From NCBI GenBank assembly GCA_016215705.1, contig JACRIR010000209.1, positions 16,530 to 80,529 on the forward strand: 64,000 nucleotides of DNA. Reading direction: 5' to 3'. The stretch's first letter is position 1, and each line of letters starts with the position of its first letter. Below, one piece after another: positions 4,628 to 41,912 of the stretch. Under the pieces are notes generated by a model that searched no databases, had not been told where the DNA came from, and was given only the letters and a program-made list of their open reading frames with translations. The stretch comes from Candidatus Poribacteria bacterium. GTDB lineage: Bacteria; Abyssobacteria; SURF-5. The position numbers and the translations under genes were made by a program.

Positions 4628-4674
4628 GAGCATATTCGGGGACACGATGCCGCATCGTGTCCCCGAATATGCTC
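4628..4674. repeat. REP-like 47-bp palindrome 3 bp after the clpX stop; probable bidirectional terminator
   Basis: gagcatattcggggacacgatg-ccg-catcgtgtccccgaatatgctc. Confidence 0.85.
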
Positions 4675-4699: not shown

Positions 4700-4726
4700 G
4701 TCATTCTGAGCGAAGCGAAGAATCTC
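4700..4726. repeat. Solo copy of the 27-bp 'GTCATTCTGAGCGAAGCGAAGAATCTC' repeat core
   Basis: Exact core also present at 9226-9252, inverted at 9557-9583, 30223-30249 and 30280-30307, and degenerate at 56208-56235. Confidence 0.8.
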
Positions 4727-7071: not shown

Positions 7072-9171
7072 TCATGGATTTCCGGCGGGCACATCGTAAA
7101 TAAAAATGGAATAGCCGAGAACTTTCCTGGGTTTCAGCTTCTTGAGCCAGTCGTGGCAGTGTGGGTTGGCGAGATAGAGATTCTGGAGATAGGTGGCGCT
7201 TACAGCCCAGACGCCGGCAGAAGGCTCGCAACCATTGAGGTCGGCGTTGCTAAGGCCATAATACTCGAGCACGCCCCGGGGACCGAAATACTTTATCTTC
7301 ACGTCCCGGATTCTGTTTTCCTGCAAGTAGTTCATGAGATCGTTCAGATTCTGTCCCCAGTCGAGATTTGAATCCACAAGATATTTGTATCCTTTACTCG
7401 GCCCGCCGATCATCTCATTGAAGTATGCAAGATAGTGTGGGTATATCCACGCCGCTGAGCCCGCGTACCAAACACACAGAATCGCGAGCGCTCGTTTCCA
7501 TCGTTTGGATTCAAAGGAGGCAACCTTCCCGGCAAAAATGCAAAGGAGTGGAATCAATGGAAGGATGTATCGGATGCCTATGTTTATCCGAGATGGCAGG
7601 GAGAAGAAACCGATCATGATCAGGATTGAAAACAAGAGGAAACGTTCGTCAAATGTCCCCTTCCCCCCTTTGCCAAAGGGGGACGAAATGGAGTTCTCCT
7701 TTACAGAAGGATGAATAGTCGACTCCCTCTTTGCAGAGGGGGGAACAGTCGAGTCGCTATTTACAAAGCAACGAATGGCCGGGCTGCTCTTTACAGAGGG
7801 AGGAATAGTGGAGCCCTGCTCTGCAGAAGAGGGGACAACCTTGTCTTGTGGGCAGCCTTCTTGACTCCCCTTATGCAAAGGGGGGGAGGGGGGATTTGGA
7901 GAACAGGCTCTCTTTCCTCCTTTTTCAAGAGAGAATAATTTGCTGAGTGGTCGGCTCGATTTCAGGCTCGCCCCGGCAGCCGCAACCAGGCATATGATAA
8001 ACGGAATCGGAGTCTTGATGAGAAAAGCCACCCAGTAGAAGTACCACCAGCCCGTTCGCGAGATTTCTCCAAACAGGAAATTGTCTTTCCACCCTTTTGC
8101 TGCCGCGAGCTGTGTATAAATTCCAAGGATGTATGAATATGCGGGAATGCGAATGCCACGCAAGGCCAGCGCATCGACTGCCTGCCAAAAAGGTTTTTCG
8201 GCGACCAGCCTCTCTGCCTGCGGTTTCAGCCATTGCGGCATGAAGGGGGTTCCAAACTGGAAGCCGTAACCAGCCCAGACAACACAGGAAGCTATAAGTA
8301 AGATCAGCAGGAGGCATAGTAAATCCCCCCTCCCCCCCTTTGCAAAGGGGGGTAATGAAAACCTGATTCGGAGGGGGATTGCCTTTTCCACTCTCTTCAA
8401 AGGTGTCCCTGTTTCCTCTCCTCGCAAAGGTTCCCCTGTTTCTCCCCTTTGCAAAGGGGGGGAGGGGGGATTTACCAGCCGGAACAAGATAACTTCCAAC
8501 AACAGAATCGGAATCAGAATGAGTCCCGTGAACTTCGACAAAAGCGCGAGACCCAACGCCATGCCCGTAAGAACCATTCGCACGGCTGAAGGCGCTTGGA
8601 GGTATTTGTGAAATGAGTACAGCGCCAGCGTCATGGTGAACGCAAGCAGCATATCAGGCGTGGCAAGCTTACAGTGTGCGAGGATCGCCGGGCAAAGGGA
8701 ATATAAAAACAGGGAAACCAGCGCTGCGCCGGAACCATAAATCTCTCTTCCCCAACGATACACCAGGAGCCCCAGCAGCGCCGAGAGAAAGACGAACGGA
8801 ATGCGCGTAAGGAACATCATCAGGCGGGGAGATTGGCCGGATTCGAATATGAGCGATGGGCCTATATAGCGGCGGTAGACGTATTCCTTGTCCTCGAATC
8901 TGTCGGGATCGAGTTTCAACGGCAGGAGAAGAAGGCTGTTGACGTAATAGGGAAGCGGCGGATGCAATTGGAGCGCCACAATCTCCCAGTTCCTGGTTTC
9001 CAGCAACTGCCGGCCAATACCGATATAACTGGGCTCATCCCACGTGAGCGACGCGCGCCGCATGCTGCCCACCGCAAGCGCGAGGTGAATTGCCAGTAGC
9101 GCGGCAACTGCGAGGCGGGTTCTCATGTCATTCCGGGACCATTTGGTGTCATTCTGAGTCCTCGGTGTCAC
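7072..9171 (-). CDS. GT39/ArnT-like (PMT_2) membrane glycosyltransferase with two in-frame repeat/homopolymer insertions
   Basis: 699 aa, multi-TM; N-terminal DEPSYIGIGRQLLE...HPPLPYY resembles ArnT/PMT_2; ORF is continuous through repeat regions 7640-7905 and 8327-8480. Confidence 0.75.
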   Translation of the reverse strand: MTPRTQNDTKWSRNDMRTRLAVAALLAIHLALAVGSMRRASLTWDEPSYIGIGRQLLETRNWEIVALQLHPPLPYYVNSLLLLPLKLDPDRFEDKEYVYRRYIGPSLIFESGQSPRLMMFLTRIPFVFLSALLGLLVYRWGREIYGSGAALVSLFLYSLCPAILAHCKLATPDMLLAFTMTLALYSFHKYLQAPSAVRMVLTGMALGLALLSKFTGLILIPILLLEVILFRLVNPPSPPLQRGETGEPLRGEETGTPLKRVEKAIPLRIRFSLPPFAKGGRGDLLCLLLILLIASCVVWAGYGFQFGTPFMPQWLKPQAERLVAEKPFWQAVDALALRGIRIPAYSYILGIYTQLAAAKGWKDNFLFGEISRTGWWYFYWVAFLIKTPIPFIICLVAAAGASLKSSRPLSKLFSLEKGGKRACSPNPPSPPLHKGSQEGCPQDKVVPSSAEQGSTIPPSVKSSPAIRCFVNSDSTVPPSAKRESTIHPSVKENSISSPFGKGGKGTFDERFLLFSILIMIGFFSLPSRINIGIRYILPLIPLLCIFAGKVASFESKRWKRALAILCVWYAGSAAWIYPHYLAYFNEMIGGPSKGYKYLVDSNLDWGQNLNDLMNYLQENRIRDVKIKYFGPRGVLEYYGLSNADLNGCEPSAGVWAVSATYLQNLYLANPHCHDWLKKLKPRKVLGYSIFIYDVPAGNP
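7640..7905. repeat. Intragenic block of about five ~30-bp tandem units (CTCTTTACAGAGGGRGG...), flanked by C7/G5 and G7-A-G6 homopolymer tracts
   Basis: Encodes ~10-aa repeats STIPPSVKSS/STVPPSAKRE/STIHPSVKEN; palindromic motif ccctttgcaaaggg at both edges. Confidence 0.8.
8327..8480. repeat. Intragenic ~25-bp repeats bounded by inverted 'aaatcccccctccccccctttgcaaagggggg' ends (C6-T-C7 ... G7-A-G6); MITE-like, but in frame
   Basis: 8327-8364 is the reverse complement of 8454-8483; homopolymer runs of 6-7 nt lie inside the ORF. Confidence 0.8.
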
Positions 9172-9252
9172 ATTCTGAGCCCTTTGGTGTCATTCTAGCC
9201 CTCGGCGTCACATTCTGAGCCCTTCGGTGTCATTCTGAGCGAAGCGAAGAAT
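9144..9252. repeat. Five tandem ~21-bp units GGTGTCA(C)ATTCTGAGCCCTY ending in the 27-bp core gtcattctgagcgaagcgaagaatctc
   Basis: Read directly from the sequence; the core supplies the last 8 codons and the stop of the GIY-YIG ORF. Confidence 0.85.
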
Positions 9253-9544
9253 CTCCTTTCTCACACCAGCCATTGCTTAGGTCTTCCCATCGGGGGTTGA
9301 CCGCTTCGATCAAGGCCATCTTCTTTGCTCGCAGCCAGCCTTTGATTTGTTTTTCACGCGCGATAGCTGCCTGAACGTCATCGGTTTCTTCGAAGAATAC
9401 GAGGCGGGTGATATTGTATTTCTTTGTAAAACCGGGCACGAGTCTTTCCTTGTGCTCGTTCACTCTTCTAACCAAATCACCAGTTACGCCCGTGTACAGA
9501 CACCGTGATTTGTTGGTCATTATGTAAACATAATAACGCTTCAT
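9230..9544 (-). CDS. Small GIY-YIG nuclease-superfamily protein
   Basis: 104 aa; MKRYYVYIMTNKSRCLYTGVTGDLVRRVNEHK is a GIY-YIG motif; C-terminal ...GDSSLRSE* is encoded by the repeat core. Confidence 0.8.
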   Translation of the reverse strand: MKRYYVYIMTNKSRCLYTGVTGDLVRRVNEHKERLVPGFTKKYNITRLVFFEETDDVQAAIAREKQIKGWLRAKKMALIEAVNPRWEDLSNGWCEKGDSSLRSE

Positions 9545-9556
9545 TGGAGTGCAAGA

Positions 9557-9645
9557 AGAGATTCTTCGCTTCGCTCAGAATGACACCAGAGGGTTCAGAA
9601 TGATATTTTGCGCTCAGAATGGCACATTACGCCCGCGATAACATA
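9557..9645. repeat. Inverted copy of the 27-bp core plus two degenerate 21-bp units immediately upstream of the GIY-YIG start
   Basis: gagattcttcgcttcgctcagaatgacacc-agagggttcagaatgata-ttgcgctcagaatggcac. Confidence 0.8.
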
Positions 9646-10727: not shown

Positions 10728-10768
10728 GTTATTCGGGGACACGATGTCGCATCGTGTCCCCGAATAAC
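10728..10768. repeat. REP-like 41-bp palindrome between the ADH synthase stop and the DHQS-II start
   Basis: gttattcggggacacgatg-tcg-catcgtgtccccgaataac. Confidence 0.85.
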
Positions 10769-15640: not shown

Positions 15641-17509
15641 TTAATGTGTCTCCCCCTCCTCCATCAATATGATGACGCCTTCGATTTCCTTCGTGGCGCC
15701 GATCAAAGGCGAGCTGGTCACATGGCATTGTATCGCCTTGCCACGACGGCTTATGGCGTCCACGGTCGCTTCGTGAATGTCGGTTTCTCCGGCAAGCACT
15801 GCGCGAATGAGTCCTTTCAGTTGCTCGACCGGCAGCCCGATATCCAGATTCAGGAGGAACTGGTCCTTCACCTCATCGGCCCGCAGTCCCCACAAGTCTT
15901 CCGCCTTCTTGTTCCAATTGGTGACTTTGAGGTTTCGGTCCACGACAACTACTCCCATGCGTACCCCGCCAATAATGGATTCGAGGAAAGCGTTCATCTG
16001 ATTCAGCATATCGGTGCGCTCGCGCAGCTCGTCATTGATCGTGTTCAGTTCCTCGTTGGTGGCTTGCAGTTCCTCGTTCATGGTTTCCATTTCCTCGCTG
16101 GAGGACTGGAGTTCCTCATTTGTGGTCTCGAGTTCTTCGACGGTAGACTGCAATTCCTCGTTTGTAGTCTCGAGTTCCTCGCTCGAGGATTGGAGTTCCT
16201 CATAGGCGCTCTCAAGTTCGTTCGTGGACTGTTCGCACTCGCGCTCCAACTGATTATAACGAGTTACGTCGGTGAATGTCATGCTCACGCCAAGGGAGAT
16301 TCCGCTGCTGTCAAACAGAGGCACTAGATAGATATCCAAATACTGAGGTTCCCTTTCGGGGAAAGTTCGTTCCACGTTTGTGATGTAGACCGATCTCATC
16401 TCCGAATAAGCCTGTTTGATACGCGAACGGAGTTCCAACGGCCGATACGAAACTTCCAGTTCGTGAAAGGGTCGGCCCACATCCCTGATGTCCAGTCCGA
16501 ACAGAGACAATGCTTCGGCATTCGCCATCGTCAGGTTCTCATTTTGGTCCACGACCATCTGCGCCGATGGAGCTCTCTCGAAGACAGCTTCCTGCAGTTG
16601 GGGGTACGGAGCCTGAAGCTCACGCGCCGCGGCGCAGCCGGCTTCGACCACGACTGGCGCGCGTCCTTGCAGACGGATAGCGCCGGGTGTCTTCTTGAAA
16701 ATGCGGTATTTCAGGTTTGTCGGCACAAAGAGATTCGTGTGCGTGAGTATCATTTCCGCCTTACCCAGAAAGAGGAACCCGTCGTCATTGAGGGCGAAGT
16801 GCAGGCGGCTTAGTATCTTATTCTGAGTCTCGGAGTTGAAATACATAAGGGTATTGCGGCAAACGAGCAGGTCGATGCGCGAGATAGGAGAGTCCTTCAT
16901 AACGTCATGAGCCCCGAAAATAGCAGAACGGCGAAATTCAGGCGAGAAGGCGTGACGGTCTTGTGCTCGGGTGAAGTATTTGTCTTTGAATTCGGCGGGG
17001 AACCCCTCCATTTGCGCGTCGCTGTAAAGCGCATGGCGCGCTTCATTCAAGGCGTTTTCGTCTATATCCGTGGCATATATCTTAACTCGTTTCTTGAACT
17101 GCTCCGCCCCCAAAGCTTCCGCAAACACGATGGCAAGGCTGTAAGCTTCCTCGCCCGAGGCGCAGCCCACACTCCACACTCGGATGGGCTCCCCTTCCGG
17201 TTTTCCCTCGATTATCTGCGGGACAACTTCATGCGCAATGTATTCCCATGCGGGCGCATCCCGGAAAAAACTGGTCACGTTTATCAGAATCGTATTGAAC
17301 AGATGGGCGAACTCGTCGGGGTGTACCTCGAGGTAATCCATGTAATCGCCGTAGTCTTGTTTGTTCACCGTCTGCATTCTCTTGTTGACACGGCGCATCA
17401 GGCTCGTTCGCTTGTAACCGGTGAAGTCGAACCCGCGCTCCCTTTTTATGAATTCAAGGAGAGCTTCAAATTTGGGGTCGTGCGCAGGGTCCTTCTTCTG
17501 GTCGGTCAT
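15641..17509 (-). CDS. CheR-type MCP methyltransferase fused to a PAS domain and a long EELQxxNEEL heptad-repeat coiled coil
   Basis: 622 aa; CheR SAM-binding region VWSVGCASGEEAYSLAIV; tandem repeats ELESAYEELQSSSEELETTNEELQSTVEELETTNEELQSSSEEMETMNEELQATNEEL; C-terminal PAS. Confidence 0.85.
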   Translation of the reverse strand: MTDQKKDPAHDPKFEALLEFIKRERGFDFTGYKRTSLMRRVNKRMQTVNKQDYGDYMDYLEVHPDEFAHLFNTILINVTSFFRDAPAWEYIAHEVVPQIIEGKPEGEPIRVWSVGCASGEEAYSLAIVFAEALGAEQFKKRVKIYATDIDENALNEARHALYSDAQMEGFPAEFKDKYFTRAQDRHAFSPEFRRSAIFGAHDVMKDSPISRIDLLVCRNTLMYFNSETQNKILSRLHFALNDDGFLFLGKAEMILTHTNLFVPTNLKYRIFKKTPGAIRLQGRAPVVVEAGCAAARELQAPYPQLQEAVFERAPSAQMVVDQNENLTMANAEALSLFGLDIRDVGRPFHELEVSYRPLELRSRIKQAYSEMRSVYITNVERTFPEREPQYLDIYLVPLFDSSGISLGVSMTFTDVTRYNQLERECEQSTNELESAYEELQSSSEELETTNEELQSTVEELETTNEELQSSSEEMETMNEELQATNEELNTINDELRERTDMLNQMNAFLESIIGGVRMGVVVVDRNLKVTNWNKKAEDLWGLRADEVKDQFLLNLDIGLPVEQLKGLIRAVLAGETDIHEATVDAISRRGKAIQCHVTSSPLIGATKEIEGVIILMEEGETH

Positions 17510-20464: not shown

Positions 20465-23386
20465 TCAATGTGGCGCTAATTTTATCCGGCACTCGCGCAT
20501 CGATGTATCTATTCTCACGGGCACAATGTCGAACCTGTCCGATGACCCTGCCATGAAAACGAGTTTGTTATACACCGGCTTCATGCGACCGTCGGGAACA
20601 AGCTGCAGGAATCTGAAGCTGTGGTCTCCTTTCGCAAGCTTGAGAATCGCCTGCGCTTCCCATCGATCATTCTCCGGTGGGGGAGATTCGGAAGCCGTAT
20701 TGAATACCCTGACCGTGAATTCATTGTCAACAAAGAGTTGATATGCCTGGGGCGGGAACTCCATCAGCAGATCATAGATTCCATCTTCTTCCAAATGAAT
20801 CTTCGTCTCAAGGAGTTGAGGCGTCTGGAAATTCGTCTTTCCTTCTGTGCCTTCCACGGTTTGCGGATTATAGGGTGTAATTGGCTCAAAGGGCCGGCGA
20901 AATCCTTCGACGTGCTTGCTCGATGCCAACGGCGCGTAACAGAAGACCAGAATCAGAACCAGCGCAACGCCTTCGCGATATTTCCGATCTGAGAGGAGAA
21001 TTCCAAAAACAGAAAGCAGTCCCATGATACTGAGAGCTAACCCGAGATAGAATGCGCGCGGCTGATAAGAGAAGGTTACCGTGTGTTTTCCGGCCGGAAC
21101 GGGAACGCCGCGGAAGACGTAGTTTGTCCGGTATATTCTCACCGGTTCTTCATCGACGCTTGCTTTCCATCCCGGGAAGAAGACCTCGCTCGAGAAAAGG
21201 AAACCCGGACGCGGAATGTCAATTTCCACCCTGACAAACTCGTTTCGGGATTCAATCATCCTGGCTTCATTCTTGATCTGCAATAATCTGTCCGTTTCGT
21301 TGACGGCCCTCTCCGTTCTCCCACTCCTCAATGCGGAAAACTCATGCGGCAGGTCTTCCTCGATGTAGTTCCTGTTCAAGGGGTCAAACTCGGGGGAAAG
21401 CATTCTCTCAATGATGTCGGCGCGCGGGAGTTTCTCCACCCCGTAGACAACGAAATGCCTCGGGAGGAAAAACTCCACCCCGAATCTGGTGTTCAACAAA
21501 CTCCTGACTCGCCTGCTTTCCCGCGTTTTCAAGAAGAAATAATTCGTGTCAAACAGGCTCCCTTCATAACCAGTCATGGAATAGGGGGGATTGTAACTGG
21601 GCAGCGTGCTGTTGACGCAGAGGAAAGGCTGGATCATGAGACTGTCGATCCTGCCTATTCTCTCCAACTCCGGCGCCGGAATGTGGTAGTAGTTCGCGTT
21701 GAGACGATTGGTTAGTTGAGACCTCGCATCCTTGATCCCGGGGTCGGTCTTGCTGTAGTAAGCGAAACCGACCCGCGGGCCGGCTTCCTTGCGAAAAGTG
21801 GAATGCGACAAGTCTGCGACCACTATTGCCACCGCGAGCCAGGGAAAGATGCGGCTTTGCCTTCCCCTCCGGAAACCGGATAATAGAACAATCAGCGCCA
21901 GGAATGAGACGATGGCCCACACGGTATAATCGTGGCGGTAGAGTCGGCTTTGCATGTAAGGCGCGAGCCCGGGAAAGAGCCAAATAATCGCACAGATTGT
22001 CAAGAGCGCTGCGACTGCGCTCATTACGGCCAATTTGACATTATTCGGAACCGTCCCCTTCCCTGTCAGCGTGTCCATCCCATAGCCTGAGAGCGCTGCG
22101 ACGCAAAACATGTTTAATATTAGAGTTCTTCCCGGATTCGTGAGCCCCTTGAACAAAGGAACGTAATCGTACACAAATCTCTGAAGCGGAAGACTGAACG
22201 CGGATTTTGTCGAGTACACGGCTGTTATCAGAATGGCGAAGACAAAAAACTTCTTATGCTTGTATCGCTTGTCTTGGGATATAACTCCAACGAACGCGAG
22301 AATGAGCGACAGCAGTCCCACATAATGATCTCTCTCCGTATATGCGATGGAAGGCAAAATGTAGCCCAAGACAGTTTGTGCGGGTGTGCATCCGTAAATC
22401 AGCGTTTCGGCCAGGTCGAACCCACCCTGCCTGTTATAGTGCGAAATATACTCCAGGCCGGGCAGCAACTGAACGGAGACAAGACAGATTGCCAGAGCGA
22501 TTGCCACGCCAAAGTATAGAAGGGCCAGGGCATATTTCTTTCTGTCAAAGTAGGAATGATGAATCTGTTCCGCAATTGCGTTGGTGCGTAGGGCCGCTGT
22601 GTGCGCGGATTTGTTCTCAGAGGACTCCCGGCCTGTGTCGGACTTTGGCCCGCGAACAAGGCGCCCACACAATTGTGCGACGGAGTCATGCTTCTCGACG
22701 AGGGCGAAAGCAAGAATGAGGGCAATGAATCCCACGGAATAAATGAAATTCGCCGGGTAGTTTGCGAAGTATGACATGGCAAATAGCAGGGAAAGACATG
22801 CGATATGTCTCCTGCGGGGCTGTTGAAGCAGCCTGAATGCGAATAGAACCAGCAACGGGAGCCACATGATACTGTGCGCCGCGCCCGCAGTCCTCATTAT
22901 ATCTTCCAGCCGCAGATTGAATCCCCATACAATAGCGCCCACCAGAGCGCCCCATCTGTTGATCTTCAGGTCCCTCATGAGAAAGTAGAAAAAGCAGCCG
23001 GTCAGTCCCTTCGCCGCAAAAAGATAGACGATGAATCTGCAAAACGGCAGTATGTGGTCAGGGTTATTGAACTTGGACAAGGCAATGGTGAGTGGATAAA
23101 GGACGCCCGAGAGGGGAGAGGCAAAATATGGCGCCCCAAACCCCCAGTTCGGGAGCCATAGCCCGAGTTCTCCGTTGAGCAAGAGGCCGGTGCTCGCGGC
23201 AAGGATATTGTACGTCTGGACGAAGTCGTTCCCGAAAGGGTAAATCTTCGGAAACGGTCCAAAGGCAAAGAAGACGTTCCAATTGACGAGGAGAGGGAGG
23301 AAGAGTATCAACGCCACGGGGGCGAGATCAAACTTATATTCTCCGATGGCCTGGCTTATCCGCGTTTTCAACGAGAACTCCTGCAA
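20465..23386 (-). CDS. YfhO-family large membrane glycosyltransferase-like protein (GT-C fold)
   Basis: 973 aa, >10 TM segments in the N-terminal half, large C-terminal extracytoplasmic domain ending in the YfhO-like segment ...FFPGWKASVDEEPVRIYRTNYVFRGV... Confidence 0.65.
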   Translation of the reverse strand: MQEFSLKTRISQAIGEYKFDLAPVALILFLPLLVNWNVFFAFGPFPKIYPFGNDFVQTYNILAASTGLLLNGELGLWLPNWGFGAPYFASPLSGVLYPLTIALSKFNNPDHILPFCRFIVYLFAAKGLTGCFFYFLMRDLKINRWGALVGAIVWGFNLRLEDIMRTAGAAHSIMWLPLLVLFAFRLLQQPRRRHIACLSLLFAMSYFANYPANFIYSVGFIALILAFALVEKHDSVAQLCGRLVRGPKSDTGRESSENKSAHTAALRTNAIAEQIHHSYFDRKKYALALLYFGVAIALAICLVSVQLLPGLEYISHYNRQGGFDLAETLIYGCTPAQTVLGYILPSIAYTERDHYVGLLSLILAFVGVISQDKRYKHKKFFVFAILITAVYSTKSAFSLPLQRFVYDYVPLFKGLTNPGRTLILNMFCVAALSGYGMDTLTGKGTVPNNVKLAVMSAVAALLTICAIIWLFPGLAPYMQSRLYRHDYTVWAIVSFLALIVLLSGFRRGRQSRIFPWLAVAIVVADLSHSTFRKEAGPRVGFAYYSKTDPGIKDARSQLTNRLNANYYHIPAPELERIGRIDSLMIQPFLCVNSTLPSYNPPYSMTGYEGSLFDTNYFFLKTRESRRVRSLLNTRFGVEFFLPRHFVVYGVEKLPRADIIERMLSPEFDPLNRNYIEEDLPHEFSALRSGRTERAVNETDRLLQIKNEARMIESRNEFVRVEIDIPRPGFLFSSEVFFPGWKASVDEEPVRIYRTNYVFRGVPVPAGKHTVTFSYQPRAFYLGLALSIMGLLSVFGILLSDRKYREGVALVLILVFCYAPLASSKHVEGFRRPFEPITPYNPQTVEGTEGKTNFQTPQLLETKIHLEEDGIYDLLMEFPPQAYQLFVDNEFTVRVFNTASESPPPENDRWEAQAILKLAKGDHSFRFLQLVPDGRMKPVYNKLVFMAGSSDRFDIVPVRIDTSMRECRIKLAPH

Positions 23387-23484: not shown

Positions 23485-25650
23485 CTATACATGTCTTCTC
23501 TTCTGTGAAGTCCATGAGATGAGAAAAAAGGCTGCCATAAGCCCAAGGCCGGCAGCGGACATCCAGGCTCCGACAAGCAGACTTCTCGGTCGAAAAGAAA
23601 ACTCTACATCGTGCCTTCCCGCGTCAACGACACAACCCATGAAATCCCCATAGACTCGCACTACCGGCCTCTCCCTTCCATCCACGCTTGCTTGCCAGCC
23701 TTTATGATAACTTTCGGACAGAATCAGGAGTTGTTTTGTTTCGGCCAGAGTCGCGACTCGAATCTTGCCAGGATGATCATGCGTGATGGTCGCCTTGCCC
23801 GGCGTACCCTCCTGCAGCGCAACCGACGAGGGAACGAGCGCCGTAGTTTCGACATCGATAGTATCGATGTCACTCTTGGGGTCAGAACCGACGAGCGCCT
23901 GTGCAACCAGTCTTGCCCTTGGAAGCGGAGCAGGCACTTCCGCTCCATAGACGCTTCCACTCAACGCATACAGCCCTTGCTTGTGTTTCTCCCAAACCCA
24001 ATGCACGTTTGCCACCCGCAAACGTGCGAGACTCATAGGTTCAAGTTGTTGCCTGGGCGGTATGCAGACAAACCCGCCCGCAATTCGGACCCCTTTCATG
24101 AGCCAGACGTTGTCGTCCGACATGAGACGGTACCGCGAGACGTCGGGAGGCGTTGGCGCAAAACCGTAGAAGCCTTCGAGCTTTGTTCCCGGCTCATTAT
24201 CCCGGATATAAGTCAACCCGTAGATACCCTGATCCGCGACGGCGAACAGAATCATCCCTGCGAAGGCCCATCGTTTTCCGCGCGCCGCCATAATAATAAT
24301 TGCGCCCGCCAGGATCATGAGAAGCGGATCGGAGAGGATAAGGTTTCTCGATGCGACACCCGAAGCAAAGTGTTGAGCCAATGTCGGGGTCTTTTCGGCC
24401 TTGGCAAGGAGAAAGAGTACGGCGAGCGATATGCTTGCGAGGGGGGCCAGCCCCAGCGGCCAAAGCTTCCTCCATGCGAGTCGGCCGCAAGATTGCACAA
24501 TCCTTGAGATGTCCGTATAGGCAATGGATGCCCCAATGGCCAAGGCAAGTTGAAACAGCAGGATATACCGGCAGGGCGCGCGAAATGCTCCAATAACCGG
24601 CACGAGAGTCTGGAGCCGATACAGATAGCCGTGCTGCCCCAGGGAAAGAATTCCCGACAAGGTGGCCAACCCGATGACTCCCGTCGCAAGTGTCCGCAAA
24701 GCCCCCAACTCCTTTCTACGGACTATGAGCAGGGCCAATAATATCACTGGAAGTGTCCCTATATATATCTTTAGTTCATATGGGATTCCACGAAACGCAA
24801 AGTCGTTGAATGAATATGGCGACAACAATTGCAATATGTGAATCGGGCGCAGACTGGGCCAGTAACGAGACCATGCTGGGTCAGTCCGACTAGTAATAGA
24901 AAGGGCGTCCCATGACGGTATAAGTTGAATGCCGCCCGCCAACACGCCGAGCAACTTGGCGATTCCAAGCGCCGAAAGCCGCCCCCAACACCGAAGCGAG
25001 AGAAGCAGGAGGAGTGTATACAAGGCTTCGGCCGACGATGAAATCCAGAAGACCTGGGGATGACCCAGAAGCAGTTGGGATGCTGTGAACAGTCCCACGC
25101 CTAACTTGGCAAATGCCACTTGGCGCCCATCGATCCCCCGCAACGCAACATCGATTGAAAACAAAAGCCAGGGAATATGCGCAGCGACGGAAACGGCATT
25201 ATAATGCACATAGTGCAACAGGTTAAACCCCGAGAATGTAAATACGAGTGCCCCAAATACACTCGCGTCGCGCGGAATCTGCCAGCGTCGCAAGAATAAG
25301 AACATGCCAGCCATCATGAAAGGATAATTGAGAAGCATCTCAAGGTTGAATGCTGCTCCGAACGGAAATATGCTGTAGAGAATCAGATGAAGGGGGTGGA
25401 GCATGCCCGCTCCACCGTCGCCATGGAGGTAGAATCCACATAGGACACTTGGAAGCCACAGGAAGCTGTCGCCTGACGCCAGACTCTGCGCATAGAAAAA
25501 GCGCATGGGGAGATGGTATCTGCTAAGGTCATCGTGTTTGTAGACTTGACCCTTGAACAAGGGCAGTCCGAGCAGACAAAGAATGATTAAACCCGCCGCC
25601 AGCCCCAGCCAAAAAGAACGGTTCTCTGTTCTGCGTTCATCCATATTCAT
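23485..25650 (-). CDS. YfhO-like membrane protein, paralog of the upstream gene
   Basis: 721 aa; C-terminal ...YHKGWQASVDGRERPVVRVYGDFMGCVV... parallels the C-terminus of the 973-aa protein. Confidence 0.65.
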   Translation of the reverse strand: MNMDERRTENRSFWLGLAAGLIILCLLGLPLFKGQVYKHDDLSRYHLPMRFFYAQSLASGDSFLWLPSVLCGFYLHGDGGAGMLHPLHLILYSIFPFGAAFNLEMLLNYPFMMAGMFLFLRRWQIPRDASVFGALVFTFSGFNLLHYVHYNAVSVAAHIPWLLFSIDVALRGIDGRQVAFAKLGVGLFTASQLLLGHPQVFWISSSAEALYTLLLLLSLRCWGRLSALGIAKLLGVLAGGIQLIPSWDALSITSRTDPAWSRYWPSLRPIHILQLLSPYSFNDFAFRGIPYELKIYIGTLPVILLALLIVRRKELGALRTLATGVIGLATLSGILSLGQHGYLYRLQTLVPVIGAFRAPCRYILLFQLALAIGASIAYTDISRIVQSCGRLAWRKLWPLGLAPLASISLAVLFLLAKAEKTPTLAQHFASGVASRNLILSDPLLMILAGAIIIMAARGKRWAFAGMILFAVADQGIYGLTYIRDNEPGTKLEGFYGFAPTPPDVSRYRLMSDDNVWLMKGVRIAGGFVCIPPRQQLEPMSLARLRVANVHWVWEKHKQGLYALSGSVYGAEVPAPLPRARLVAQALVGSDPKSDIDTIDVETTALVPSSVALQEGTPGKATITHDHPGKIRVATLAETKQLLILSESYHKGWQASVDGRERPVVRVYGDFMGCVVDAGRHDVEFSFRPRSLLVGAWMSAAGLGLMAAFFLISWTSQKRRHV

Positions 25651-26022
25651 CTGTACTACTCATTTTCAAAATCACAAATTCTTGTCGTGATTTCTTGCAC
25701 GAACCTAACGCATATTAGTCACACGGGCGCAATGAATTGCGCCCCTACAGACACGAATCAAGATGCTCCGTAGGGGCGCGATTCATCGCGCCCGATTCGT
25801 GCTGTTTGGTTGCGGCTATGCTGCGCTGTACTACTCACGTTCGAAATCATGAATTCGTGTCGCAATTTCCTCTTCTTCTTTTTCGTAAAATCCGTGTCCA
25901 TCCGTGTGCATCTGTGGCTAAGATGCCTCTTTTTCTTCTTCTCCCCAAATCCGTGGAATCCGTGAAATCCGTGGTTCCCTTTGTTTCTTCTTTTGTTTGG
26001 TTGCGGCTCTGCCGCGCTATGT
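25651..26022. repeat. Repeat-rich 372-bp leader/promoter region with ~45-bp direct repeats (~80% identical), GGGCGC..GCGCCC hairpins and TCCGTG microrepeats
   Basis: 25651-25695 vs 25825-25872; tttggttgcggct at 25816 and 25999; hairpins at 25725-25745 and 25773-25792. Confidence 0.7.
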
Positions 26023-27591
26023 TCATCTGCGGTTAATATCACTGTTTCGGCTTATCGCGTAGATGCGAATCGCCGGGCCGCGCGATCTGCCGGCTTCGCT
26101 CGGCCATTCACGCAAAAGCGGAAACTTGAACAACGGATCGTAGGAGCGAAAGCCAAACGCGCGATACCTCGGCCACTGCATTTCGCTTATGACGACGTAG
26201 TCATAGTTCAGAACTATTTCCTCGAATGGAATTCGACTGATCGTCCACGCCCATCCCGTCCTGAACTTTCCGGCGAAATACAGTTGCGGACAGTATGCCT
26301 CGTACAATATGCGCGAGCCCGCAGGAACAGCCGCAGTTATCCATTCGTATGCCAGCGTTCGATTGTCCGGCCGTCTCATCTCTTGCCATGTCGCGCGTGT
26401 CCTTTGAAACAGAATCCAACCGGCGAGAACGAAAACGATAATCAAGGGTAACTTGGCGCGGACCGCTGTTCGTTTCCTCTCCAAAGCTGACAACGATGTC
26501 CCGAAGGCGCCCCACACTCCTACTGCGGTCAGGCAACAGAGAGCCGGAAGCGATGGGAGAAGATGACGCGGGAAATATACCTTGGCAGTGCTGACCATTC
26601 CCAGAAATAAGATTGACGCAGCGCCGGCCAGAGCGAGCGGCTTCCTGGTAGTTATCTCTCGAGCCGCAAGCGGAGAGAGCAAGGCGAATAAGACAAGAAA
26701 TGAATGCTGATTGAGAAGGCTATTGATTGCCTTAAAAAGGCTTACCCCTTGATCTGCGCCGGGATGACCGGATGAATAGTGCACGAAGTCATAGGGCATT
26801 CCTACAGCGGGGTCGAGAAAAGTCTTGATGTCCAGAATGGAGTATGGCGTGGTTACGACGAAAACGGCAATAGACAGCAGTACGGCAAGCGTGAGCCTGC
26901 TCAGGACCCAACGAAACGGTTTCCTGACAAGCCATATGGCCAGAGGAACAGCAAAAAGAACCGCTGCGCCGTTGTATTTGGAGCCCGCGGCCAGTCCGCC
27001 AAATATCACGGCGCTCCAGAGATGGCGCTCTCTGCATTGCCCTCGCTCTGCCGAATCTGTAAAGGCTACCAGTTGCATCAATGACGCAGTGACGAAAAAG
27101 GCCATAGGCATTTCCAGTGTCACATAAGCTGCGCTTTCACGAACAAGGTTGCTCCCGATGAATGTGAGCCCTGCCAGTGAAGCTAAGAGGGGTGAAGTCA
27201 TACGCGACGTAAGCCGCAGAATCAGATAGAGCGTGCCTAAGGAGAAGCAAACCGTCGCAATGCGCGCGGTGTGGTAAATATCGAACACTTCGGGATTTAC
27301 CCCGCGCACGCTCAGGGGCAGACACAACGGGAGAGGAGCGTCGAAAAGAAACTGGAGAAGCTTCAGGATGCCCGCATGCGCGTAGATGACTAGCGACGGG
27401 TAATGGAACCAATGTGGATTCAAATCTCCCGTCAGCGCCATCCGCGCCGCTCGACTGATCACATCGGGCTCATCCGCATGATAGATGAATGGGGCGTTGA
27501 TGTTCGAGTAGCTCCCCCAGTACACTGCTGCAAACGCAAGCAACGCTACATGCGTCGCGAACGAGGAGTAATCACGCCGGGCGGTTATCAA
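26023..27591 (-). CDS. GT39/ArnT-like (PMT_2) membrane glycosyltransferase
   Basis: 522 aa, multi-TM; N-terminus ...YHADEPDVISRAARMALTGDLNPHWFHYPSLVIY. Confidence 0.7.
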   Translation of the reverse strand: MITARRDYSSFATHVALLAFAAVYWGSYSNINAPFIYHADEPDVISRAARMALTGDLNPHWFHYPSLVIYAHAGILKLLQFLFDAPLPLCLPLSVRGVNPEVFDIYHTARIATVCFSLGTLYLILRLTSRMTSPLLASLAGLTFIGSNLVRESAAYVTLEMPMAFFVTASLMQLVAFTDSAERGQCRERHLWSAVIFGGLAAGSKYNGAAVLFAVPLAIWLVRKPFRWVLSRLTLAVLLSIAVFVVTTPYSILDIKTFLDPAVGMPYDFVHYSSGHPGADQGVSLFKAINSLLNQHSFLVLFALLSPLAAREITTRKPLALAGAASILFLGMVSTAKVYFPRHLLPSLPALCCLTAVGVWGAFGTSLSALERKRTAVRAKLPLIIVFVLAGWILFQRTRATWQEMRRPDNRTLAYEWITAAVPAGSRILYEAYCPQLYFAGKFRTGWAWTISRIPFEEIVLNYDYVVISEMQWPRYRAFGFRSYDPLFKFPLLREWPSEAGRSRGPAIRIYAISRNSDINRR

Positions 27592-30222: not shown

Positions 30223-30307
30223 GTCATTCTGAGCAAAGCGAAGAATCTCGGGGGAAATCGTTCAATATGCTCCTCAAAGAGGATTCTTCGCTTCGCTCAG
30301 GATGGCG
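30223..30307. repeat. Inverted pair of the 27-bp repeat core forming a ~27-bp-stem hairpin with a 30-nt spacer
   Basis: gtcattctgagcaaagcgaagaatctc ... gaggattcttcgcttcgctcaggatggc; lies in the intergenic region before the UDP-sugar dehydrogenase gene. Confidence 0.85.
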
Positions 30308-31621: not shown

Positions 31622-31664
31622 GGAAAATTGGGGACACCATGCCGCATGGTGTCCCCGATTTTCC
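31622..31664. repeat. REP-like 43-bp palindrome 3 bp after the stop codon
   Basis: ggaaaattggggacaccatg-ccg-catggtgtccccgattttcc (one mismatch). Confidence 0.85.
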
Positions 31665-41715: not shown

Positions 41716-41760
41716 AGAAAAATCGGGGACACGATGCCGCATCGTGTCCCCGATTTTTCT
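41716..41760. repeat. REP-like 45-bp palindrome ~55 bp after the TPR protein stop
   Basis: agaaaaatcggggacacgatg-ccg-catcgtgtccccgatttttct. Confidence 0.85.
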
Positions 41761-41912
41761 TAATCCCGTACCGTCTTGCGGCTTTTCTCCATGCCGTACC
41801 GTCCTCCAAATCCTCTCGGTACGGCATCTCGTCCCCGATTCTCCACTTCAACACGATGTCCTCCGTAGGGGCACGGCGCGCCGTGCCCCTACAGCAATTA
41901 TCGGACAGATTC

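Follow-up and report, generated by a model that had tools for sequence, protein, structure and literature searches.

The glycosyltransferase gene and its two palindromic blocks

The window analysed in this study is a 64,000-nt stretch of Candidatus Poribacteria DNA. It contains a GT-C fold glycosyltransferase gene (GT39/PMT_2; 7072..9171, minus strand), identified by its open reading frame (ORF), Pfam and Foldseek, which is the host of two palindromic insertions termed element A and element B. The 699-aa ORF at 7072-9171 (GTG start at 9171) was uninterrupted across both repeat blocks, as a preliminary description of this DNA had stated. The NCBI protein (P0001/MBI5118341.1) has 684 aa, which puts its annotated start at the ATG at 9126. 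The window protein was a 100% match to MBI5118341.1, 'glycosyltransferase family 39 protein [Candidatus Poribacteria bacterium]', and the window gene was known from one contig, with one cluster member.

The product had been described as GT39/ArnT-like, and the Pfam and Foldseek results agreed with this identity. The protein matched Pfam PMT_2 (4.1e-14, 53.5 bits, cut-off 26.1) and PMT (1.2e-9, 38.6 bits, cut-off 22.7), and the match ended at residue 229, right ahead of block B. An AlphaFold2 model of moderate quality (mean predicted local distance difference test score, pLDDT, 63.6) was matched by Foldseek to yeast Pmt1-Pmt2 (6p25_B, 2e-4), ArnT (5f15, 2.1e-4) and Pmt4. A PDB search by sequence profile with the glycosyltransferase gave no match. 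The motif W44-D45-E46, which follows the first transmembrane helix (TM1), was invariant among 15 aligned sequences. We take its loop to be the extracytoplasmic catalytic loop of the GT-C fold, in line with the established topology. The gene product has a GT39/PMT_2 profile score over the cut-off and a multi-pass PMT/ArnT-like fold, and its first extracytoplasmic loop bears an acidic motif.

The basic unit of the repeat is a 44-nt hairpin, AAAT-C6-T-C6/7-[ TTTGCAAA ]-G6/7-A-G6-ATTT. When the palindrome CCCTTTGCAAAGGG was searched with up to 2 mismatches, all 5 window matches fell within the glycosyltransferase gene, against 0.22 expected. The inverted arms of both blocks (37-38 nt) gave the consensus AAATCCCCCCTCCCCCCCTTTGCAAAGGGG. 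The 44-nt palindrome is free of stop codons in all six frames, and its translations are KSPLPPFAKGGRGD, NPPSPPLQRGGGGI and IPPPPLCKGGEGGF.

Element B (block B; 8321..8473, minus strand) is a palindromic insertion of exactly 153 nt (51 codons) that was delimited by its arms, orthologue alignment, RNA folding and pLDDT. It encodes approximately residues 233-284 (NPPSPPLQRGE...PPFAKGGRGD), which lie in the loop joining helix 213-233 to helix 280-305. Its arms at 8319-8355 and 8439-8475 are 37 nt long and 95% complementary, with 83 nt between them. The predicted RNA fold had an energy of -95.8 kcal/mol (z -7.7), its outer stem encloses three copies of an inner hairpin, and the element was open in three of six frames. 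Inner 27-nt (9-codon) tandem units (8385..8457, minus strand) were found by repeat search, Tandem Repeats Finder (TRF) and autocorrelation, and each unit consists of a degenerate CCTTTGCAAAGG hairpin and a spacer. The unit pair 8385-8411 and 8412-8438 was 74% identical, TRF reported a period of 27 with 2.2 copies and 82% matches at 8398-8457, and the lag-27 autocorrelation was 0.52 compared to a shuffle maximum of 0.47. The inverted ends previously ascribed to this block, like those of a MITE (miniature inverted-repeat transposable element), were found as the 37-nt arms, but the unit size is 27 nt and not the ~25 bp given there.

Block A spans ~7651-7941. Its core, element A (7651..7897, minus strand), comprises 247 nt with inverted arms and seven small hairpins, and was defined by arms, orthologues, fold and pLDDT. 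The peptide that it encodes, NPPSPPLHKG...SPFGKGGKGTF, lies in the loop joining helix 389-405 to helix 504-524. The arms at 7644-7681 and 7867-7904 are 38 nt long and 82% complementary, with 185 nt between them, the RNA fold was -106.8 kcal/mol (z -5.7), and the element was open in two of six frames. By eye, six of the small hairpin loops lie at 30-nt steps (7672-7822) and the seventh lies at 7875. The 30-nt (10-codon) tandem hairpin units (7699..7837, minus strand) were recognised by repeat search, autocorrelation and orthologue comparison. Four in-register copies at 30-nt spacing were 67-78% identical and encode GSTIPPSVKS, SPAIRCFVNS, DSTVPPSAKR and ESTIHPSVKE, and the lag-30 autocorrelation was 0.55 compared to a maximum of 0.40 in 500 shuffles. 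This spacing and autocorrelation bear out the earlier claim of a tandem repeat of ~30-bp units encoding 10-aa repeats. The inner units are 22-33% diverged, and the change in copy number is therefore old and not ongoing. Upstream of element A in the mRNA sense lies a degenerate second hairpin module, AAATTATTCTCTCTTGAAAAAGGAGGAAAGAGAGCC (7905..7941, minus strand), which is absent from orthologues without the insertion.

We then located the homopolymer tracts within the blocks; they are given here without strand. The G7-A-G6 tract at 7880..7893 is the outer-stem half of an element A arm and lies within a 30-nt arm shared with extragenic copies. The C6-T-C7 tract at 8325..8338 and the G7-A-G6 tract at 8456..8469 are the outer-stem halves of the two element B arms. 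The first of these positions agrees with the preliminary description, and the other two, placed there at 8337-8350 and 8467-8480, were off by 11-12 nt. Runs of seven G/C were present at 7880-7886, 8332-8338 and 8456-8462, together with six runs of six in the ORF, so slippage-prone homopolymers of borderline length do occur inside the ORF. Nine of the 20 window G/C runs of at least 6 fell within 7663-8469. These runs are clustered but not in excess, because the window total of 20 does not exceed the 23.8 expected from a first-order Markov model.

In-frame insertions shared by two lineages

To compare orthologues, the window protein was aligned with 14 homologues. Both blocks were missing from 13 of the 14 (56-71% identical, 547-588 aa), which have short K/R-rich loops instead; these measure 15-17 aa at site B and are only a few residues long at site A. 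The site B loop of the window protein has 53 aa, compared to those 15-17 aa. The native loops at both sites were variable among the orthologues. The remaining homologue, P0002 (75% identical), is encoded on an independent JGI metagenome contig (L001) and carries insertions at the identical two codon positions. Comparison of orthologues for the presence of the blocks, which had been suggested earlier, thus separated 13 genes without them from one with both sites filled.

At site A, L001 contains the same element. Its arms, AAATCCCCCCTTCCCCCCTTTGCAAAAGGGGGG ... CCCCCCCTTGTAAAGGGGGGAGAGCGGGGATTT, and first spacer are shared with the window, and it has three hairpins where the window has seven; approximately four of the window's 30-nt units are missing. 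The suggested variability of repeat-unit number was therefore observed between orthologues. The L001 counterpart of the 7905-7941 module, TTCCCCCTTAAAAAAAGAGGAAAGAGAGCC, occupies the same position. The L001 tract differs by substitution (C6-TT-C6 compared to C6-T-C7), and the frame is kept. At site B, a decayed left arm alone is left, AAATCCCTCCTCCCCCGCATTCGTGAAGGAGG, and beside it lies a nested, unrelated GTAG-type palindrome, tgtaggtgcgaatttattcgc ... gcgaataaatccgcacctaca. These results show that the blocks are genuine insertions whose frame was kept in two lineages. The insertions are real and not an assembly artefact, because the independent contig has them at the same codon positions, and since they are common to both, both insertions appear to predate the split of the window and L001 lineages.

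The nested palindrome of L001 (1205-1285) resembles repetitive extragenic palindromic (REP) sequences, with GTAG/CTAC tags (tGTAGgtgcgaatttattcgc ... gcgaataaatccgcaCCTACa), and sits in-frame in the decayed C/G-tract element. Two different palindromes occur at L001 site B, and therefore one loop took up two kinds of palindromic repeat. Four-fold-site identity between window 7072-9171 and L001 447-2468 was 0.55 (aa 20-232), 0.66 (285-405) and 0.905 (508-695). This mosaic divergence of the two genes suggests recombination, with a possible breakpoint near element A. The mosaic complicates any comparison of how well the elements and the synonymous sites are conserved.

As to the protein, the inner units repeat in whole-codon steps (27 and 30 nt), and the length of element B is likewise a whole number of codons. 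In the AlphaFold2 model, residues 238-278 and 408-504 were without secondary structure (pLDDT <50), with confident transmembrane helices on either side, and the inserted peptides are predicted to be disordered. Both insert loops are probably cytoplasmic, off the catalytic periplasmic face, because helix counting from the W44-D45-E46 loop, the surplus of K/R in the orthologues' native loops and an extracytoplasmic C-terminal domain place them there. This predicted location differs from the periplasmic loops considered earlier.

Related hairpins and known repeat families

We next searched for the arms in other genomes. An exact arm 25-mer was found at 6 loci in GTDB species-representative genomes, namely in metagenome-assembled genomes (MAGs) of a Geobacter, of two deltaproteobacteria (three contigs of one) and of a Gallionellaceae bacterium. 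By our own arithmetic, the chance expectation for this 25-mer in 596 Gb is ~0.001. An exact arm 30-mer was found at 12 metagenome loci. All 18 copies elsewhere were extragenic (0/18 in credible coding sequence). They were mostly the plain hairpin AAATCCCCCCTCCCCCCCTTTGCAAAGGGGGGTTGGGGGGGATTT or half-copies, and some were paired with a second hairpin of type AAATCCCCCTTTGAAAAGGGGGACATAGGGGGATTT. In L015, two inner hairpins lie inside an outer AAAATC6...G6ATTTT stem, which is the architecture of the window blocks. Several of the 18 loci had more variant hairpins within a few kb, and none were present at the empty-site orthologue locus L020. The order in which a CCCCCTT(T/A)AAAAAGGGGG-type hairpin precedes the main arm also occurs extragenically in L007, L008, L012, L016 and L017, and the likeness of the 7905-7941 module to those hairpins is suggestive.

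The arm search of viral contigs gave no copy. An Rfam search at gathering threshold returned four tRNAs only; matches in 7400-9400 were chance-level miRNA matches (E ~2), and no family was found for the element. A full-text literature search for the palindrome string found no paper, and a literature search on Poribacteria repeats found nothing relevant. When the block B peptide was searched exhaustively with phmmer against 1.84 billion representatives, 4 weak matches and no other real protein with the insert were obtained. P0106, P0107 and P0109 are repeat-rich proteins and were judged unrelated; P0108 looks like the translated product of an array of such hairpins.

We compared these elements with known systems. 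Bacterial MITEs, such as Chunjie of Geobacter uraniireducens, Correia and Nezha, are short, non-coding elements (~50-500 bp) that carry terminal inverted repeats and are predicted to fold into strong hairpins. Like them, the 153- and 247-nt elements are bounded by terminal inverted repeats, and the hairpins of L008, L012 and L017 lie within a ~140-nt element with inverted ends of its own, AGAGCTTATCC...GGATAAGCTCT. As for multiple copies, other genomes hold several, e.g. on the three contigs of one deltaproteobacterial MAG. Unlike MITEs, the window elements have no visible target-site duplication. No matching insertion sequence or transposase was found in the scanned window ORFs, and no other copy in the 64-kb window.

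Campylobacter, Neisseria, Haemophilus and Helicobacter have glycosyltransferase genes that are phase-variable through homopolymeric tracts. The window gene resembles them in having G/C runs of 7 within the ORF of an envelope-glycosylation-type enzyme. Unlike in those genes, the window tracts belong to a palindromic repeat and have complementary counterparts, and their length falls near the bottom of the slippage-prone range.

Rickettsia palindromic elements (RPEs) are ~100-250 bp palindromes found in-frame in unrelated housekeeping genes, where the ORF stays intact and a tolerated peptide is added (Ogata et al. 2000, reviewed in PMC10969869). The window elements are likewise palindromic insertions that keep the frame of a conserved protein gene and leave its ORF open. 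A sequence relation to RPEs was not apparent by inspection. The likeness is an analogy and not membership. The host also differs, being a Poribacteria MAG in which one gene is affected in 64 kb. Furthermore, the window elements consist of C/G-tract hairpins in which the number of inner modules varies, and the related copies that were found are all extragenic. An in-frame MITE-like insertion had been called unusual in the preliminary description; it is uncommon, but in-frame fusion of repeat elements with genes is an established phenomenon in Rickettsia RPEs and others (PMC10969869, PMC3184786).

A 'conserved sequence' of Geobacter bemidjiensis, AAGTCCCCCTTTGCGAAGGGGGATTAGGGGGATTTC, has been reported in 6 intergenic copies with no assigned function (Aklujkar et al. 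2010, PMC2996986, Table S6). It shares with the window hairpins the A-rich lead, C5-6, the TTTGCnAA loop, G5-6, a short linker and G5-6ATTT. It closely resembles the hairpins beside the main arm in L008 and L016, and one of the exact-arm matches is in a Geobacter MAG. Unlike the window blocks, it consists of one hairpin only, lacks a double C6-T-C7 stem and inner arrays, and was not reported in genes.

REP sequences and bacterial interspersed mosaic elements (BIMEs) are described as GTAG- or CGTC-tagged palindromes that are as a rule extragenic and are mobilised by REP-associated tyrosine transposases (RAYTs; PMC3733652). The window elements are similarly small, G+C-rich, imperfect palindromes in tandem mosaic clusters, and the copies elsewhere are extragenic. 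They differ in that their ends are AAAT...ATTT without a GTAG/CGTC tag and in that the window copies are intragenic, and no RAYT/Y1 transposase domain was present among the 40 window ORFs scanned with Pfam. A genuine GTAG-type (REP) palindrome is the one nested at the orthologue site B in L001.

Origin of the blocks and other repeats in the window

The blocks are best explained by a REP/MITE-like palindromic repeat that inserted in-frame and was tolerated, in analogy to RPEs, and we give this reading a probability of roughly 0.78. A small palindromic repeat element would have landed twice in sequence coding for a GT39-type membrane glycosyltransferase, and both copies would have been kept because the protein was not broken. 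Tandem duplication of the inner hairpin in 27- or 30-nt steps, under a frame-preserving filter, would then have followed; the outer stem now encloses three (block B) or seven (block A) inner hairpins. The inserts would be translated as Pro/Gly/Ser/Lys-rich disordered extensions of two inter-helix loops. The element's stems account for the G/C homopolymer runs. The palindromic architecture and the match to extragenic copies can be seen directly in the DNA. The earlier view of these blocks as MITE-like, inverted-repeat-bounded, in-frame insertions was upheld by the arms and the orthologue alignment. We infer mobility and a horizontal origin of the element because of the cross-phylum identity and the extragenic copies.

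Several observations weigh against this interpretation. No further copy was found in the 64-kb window outside the glycosyltransferase gene. A target-site duplication was sought at both blocks and none was visible; with the block boundary marked by a slash, the flanks are ...CATA/GTAAAT...ATTTAC/CAGC and ...CGTTCGTC/AAAT...ATTT/GGAGAAC, without a direct repeat. No transposase or RAYT was detected among the 40 window ORFs scanned with Pfam (the ORFs at 61-64 kb lie outside the scan). Movement of the element within this lineage is presumed from comparison, and the inserts are likewise presumed to be translated and the enzyme to be active. In addition, both block B arms match the cross-phylum 30-mer exactly, and the adjacent N-terminal four-fold sites are 55% identical to L001. 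Arms so perfect are not expected from simple neutral decay, because the insertion appears older than the L001 split. The perfect block B arms may reflect gene conversion with other copies as donors, a renewed insertion into this site or a constraint that acts on the hairpin.

The tracts could alternatively form a contingency locus, in which slippage at G7/C7 would switch the glycosyltransferase on and off and the tracts would be kept for that. Catalogues of candidate phase-variable genes take G/C runs of at least 7 as the lower bound, the ORF contains three runs of 7 and six of 6, and this gene family modifies envelope structures. However, the tract-bearing repeat is found with identical sequence extragenically in unrelated bacteria, the orthologue tract changed by substitution with the frame kept, the window total of G/C runs is not over expectation, and a run of 7 is generally known to be short for efficient slippage. 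Because identical sequence occurs extragenically in unrelated bacteria, the homopolymer runs are the stems of the element and not the independent contingency feature proposed earlier, and we regard such a locus as very unlikely. The preserved arms of block B, better kept than nearby neutral sites, and the very stable folds (-95.8 and -106.8 kcal/mol; z -7.7 and -5.7) would also fit a regulatory RNA structure, in which the near-perfect 34-bp RNA duplexes act on the mRNA, e.g. as an RNase III target or translation-dependent roadblock, or a DNA inversion switch of a 423-nt segment. For the switch, the arms at 7867-7897 and 8321-8351 (31 nt, 94% complementary) lie 423 nt apart, and a simulated inversion put 8 stop codons in the ORF, which as a hypothetical consequence would be an OFF state. 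Against these roles, a terminator scan called no terminator-like site at either block, for which reason a bidirectional terminator was also rejected, and no Rfam family was found. No recombinase or invertase was detected among the 40 window ORFs scanned, no contig was found in the alternative orientation, and L001 lost one arm set with its gene still intact. We consider a regulatory or switching origin highly improbable. A wider proposal is that the repeat belongs to an unnamed, horizontally spreading hairpin family of Desulfuromonadota-type deltaproteobacteria, Gallionellaceae and Poribacteria, stop-free and hence able to colonise coding sequence, and that both copies here are functional, with arms kept by selection or conversion and the glycosyltransferase switched via the 423-nt inversion, G7/C7 slippage or RNase III cutting of the 34-bp duplex. 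Taken as a whole, this proposal is decidedly unlikely.

The blocks might instead be native loops that grew in situ as protein-selected, low-complexity tandem repeats, with a coincidental likeness to hairpins. The whole-codon inner periods (27/30 nt), the frame kept in two lineages and the variation of orthologue loops at both sites would agree with such growth. Yet both block B arms share an exact 30 nt with extragenic copies in other phyla, the long inverted symmetry is meaningless at the protein level, and the peptide is predicted to be disordered and has no real homologue in 1.84 billion representatives, P0108 being the sole related match. It is hard to credit native growth in view of these data. 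Homopolymers and palindromes are difficult for assemblers, and an assembly artefact or chimeric join at low-complexity sequence was also considered. The frame is kept over ~440 nt of insert with conserved protein on either side, and the independent contig has the insertions at the same two codon positions, which makes the probability of an artefact close to negligible.

If tolerated insertion is correct, the locus would be a clean, datable case, outside Rickettsia, of selfish palindromic DNA persisting in an essential-looking membrane enzyme. Two lineages share the insertion; one of the copies is decayed and hosts a different REP. Two factors would account for the tolerance, namely a repeat that is stop-free in every frame and landing in inter-helix loops that are already variable among orthologues. 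For annotation, intragenic G/C homopolymers can be by-products of repeat elements and not contingency tracts. Peptides of the 'PPLxKGGxGG' type in predicted proteins may often derive from these hairpins, with P0108 as the one example here. The exact conservation of 30-44 nt hairpins across phyla is relevant to research on REP/MITE mobilisation. The hairpin family is barely described so far, while in-frame palindromic insertion is itself a known phenomenon.

Other repeats were observed close to the glycosyltransferase gene. A tandem array at 9126-9240, with ~5.7 degenerate 21-nt copies, overlaps the 5' end of its ORF. A 23-nt repeat, CATTCTGAGCGAAGCGAAGAATC, is present at 9231-9253 (+) and 9560-9582 (-), inverted on either side of a small GIY-YIG nuclease ORF (9230-9544, minus strand; Pfam GIY-YIG 9e-15), and this bracketed ORF looks like a small mobile cassette. 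The same repeat occurs at 4702, 30225/30282 and 56210, with an empty inverted pair at 30225-30304. In L001 (447-520), the N-terminus of P0002 starts with HSEHKEKLVPGFTRKYNITRLV, a GIY-YIG protein fragment fused to the 5' end of the glycosyltransferase (window: VNEHKERLVPGFTKKYNITRLV).

Elsewhere in the window, a separate palindromic family, CGGGGACAC(G/C)ATGC-N-GCAT(C/G)GTGTCCCCG, had five near-perfect copies in 64 kb compared to 0 expected (994-1022, 4637-4665, 10734-10762, 31629-31657 and 41724-41752, with a partial copy near 41817-41840). By coordinates, these copies are at gene ends or between ORFs, e.g. between the DHQS II and aldolase genes. An inverted pair with GTAG/CTAC tags at 25724-25794, CGGGCGCAATGAATTGCGCCCCTACAGA / TCCGTAGGGGCGCGATTCATCGCGCCCG (28 nt, 89% complementary), is REP-like and sits between a YfhO-like and a second PMT-like gene. 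The YfhO-like membrane proteins (20465-23386 and 23485-25650) and the second PMT-like glycosyltransferase (26023-27591) contain no repeat insertions. These genes lie upstream of a polysaccharide-synthesis cluster at ~27.6-39.7 kb that includes GT1/GT2/GT4 enzymes, a flippase and methyltransferases. Finally, a 21/42/84-nt tandem repeat at 16046-16224 (CAGTTCCTCGTTGGTGGATTG-like, 7.4 copies) was found in a CheR-PAS ORF (15641-17509, minus strand), where it coincides by coordinates with weak Pfam matches to ATG17-like and Rootletin (coiled-coil-type) families.

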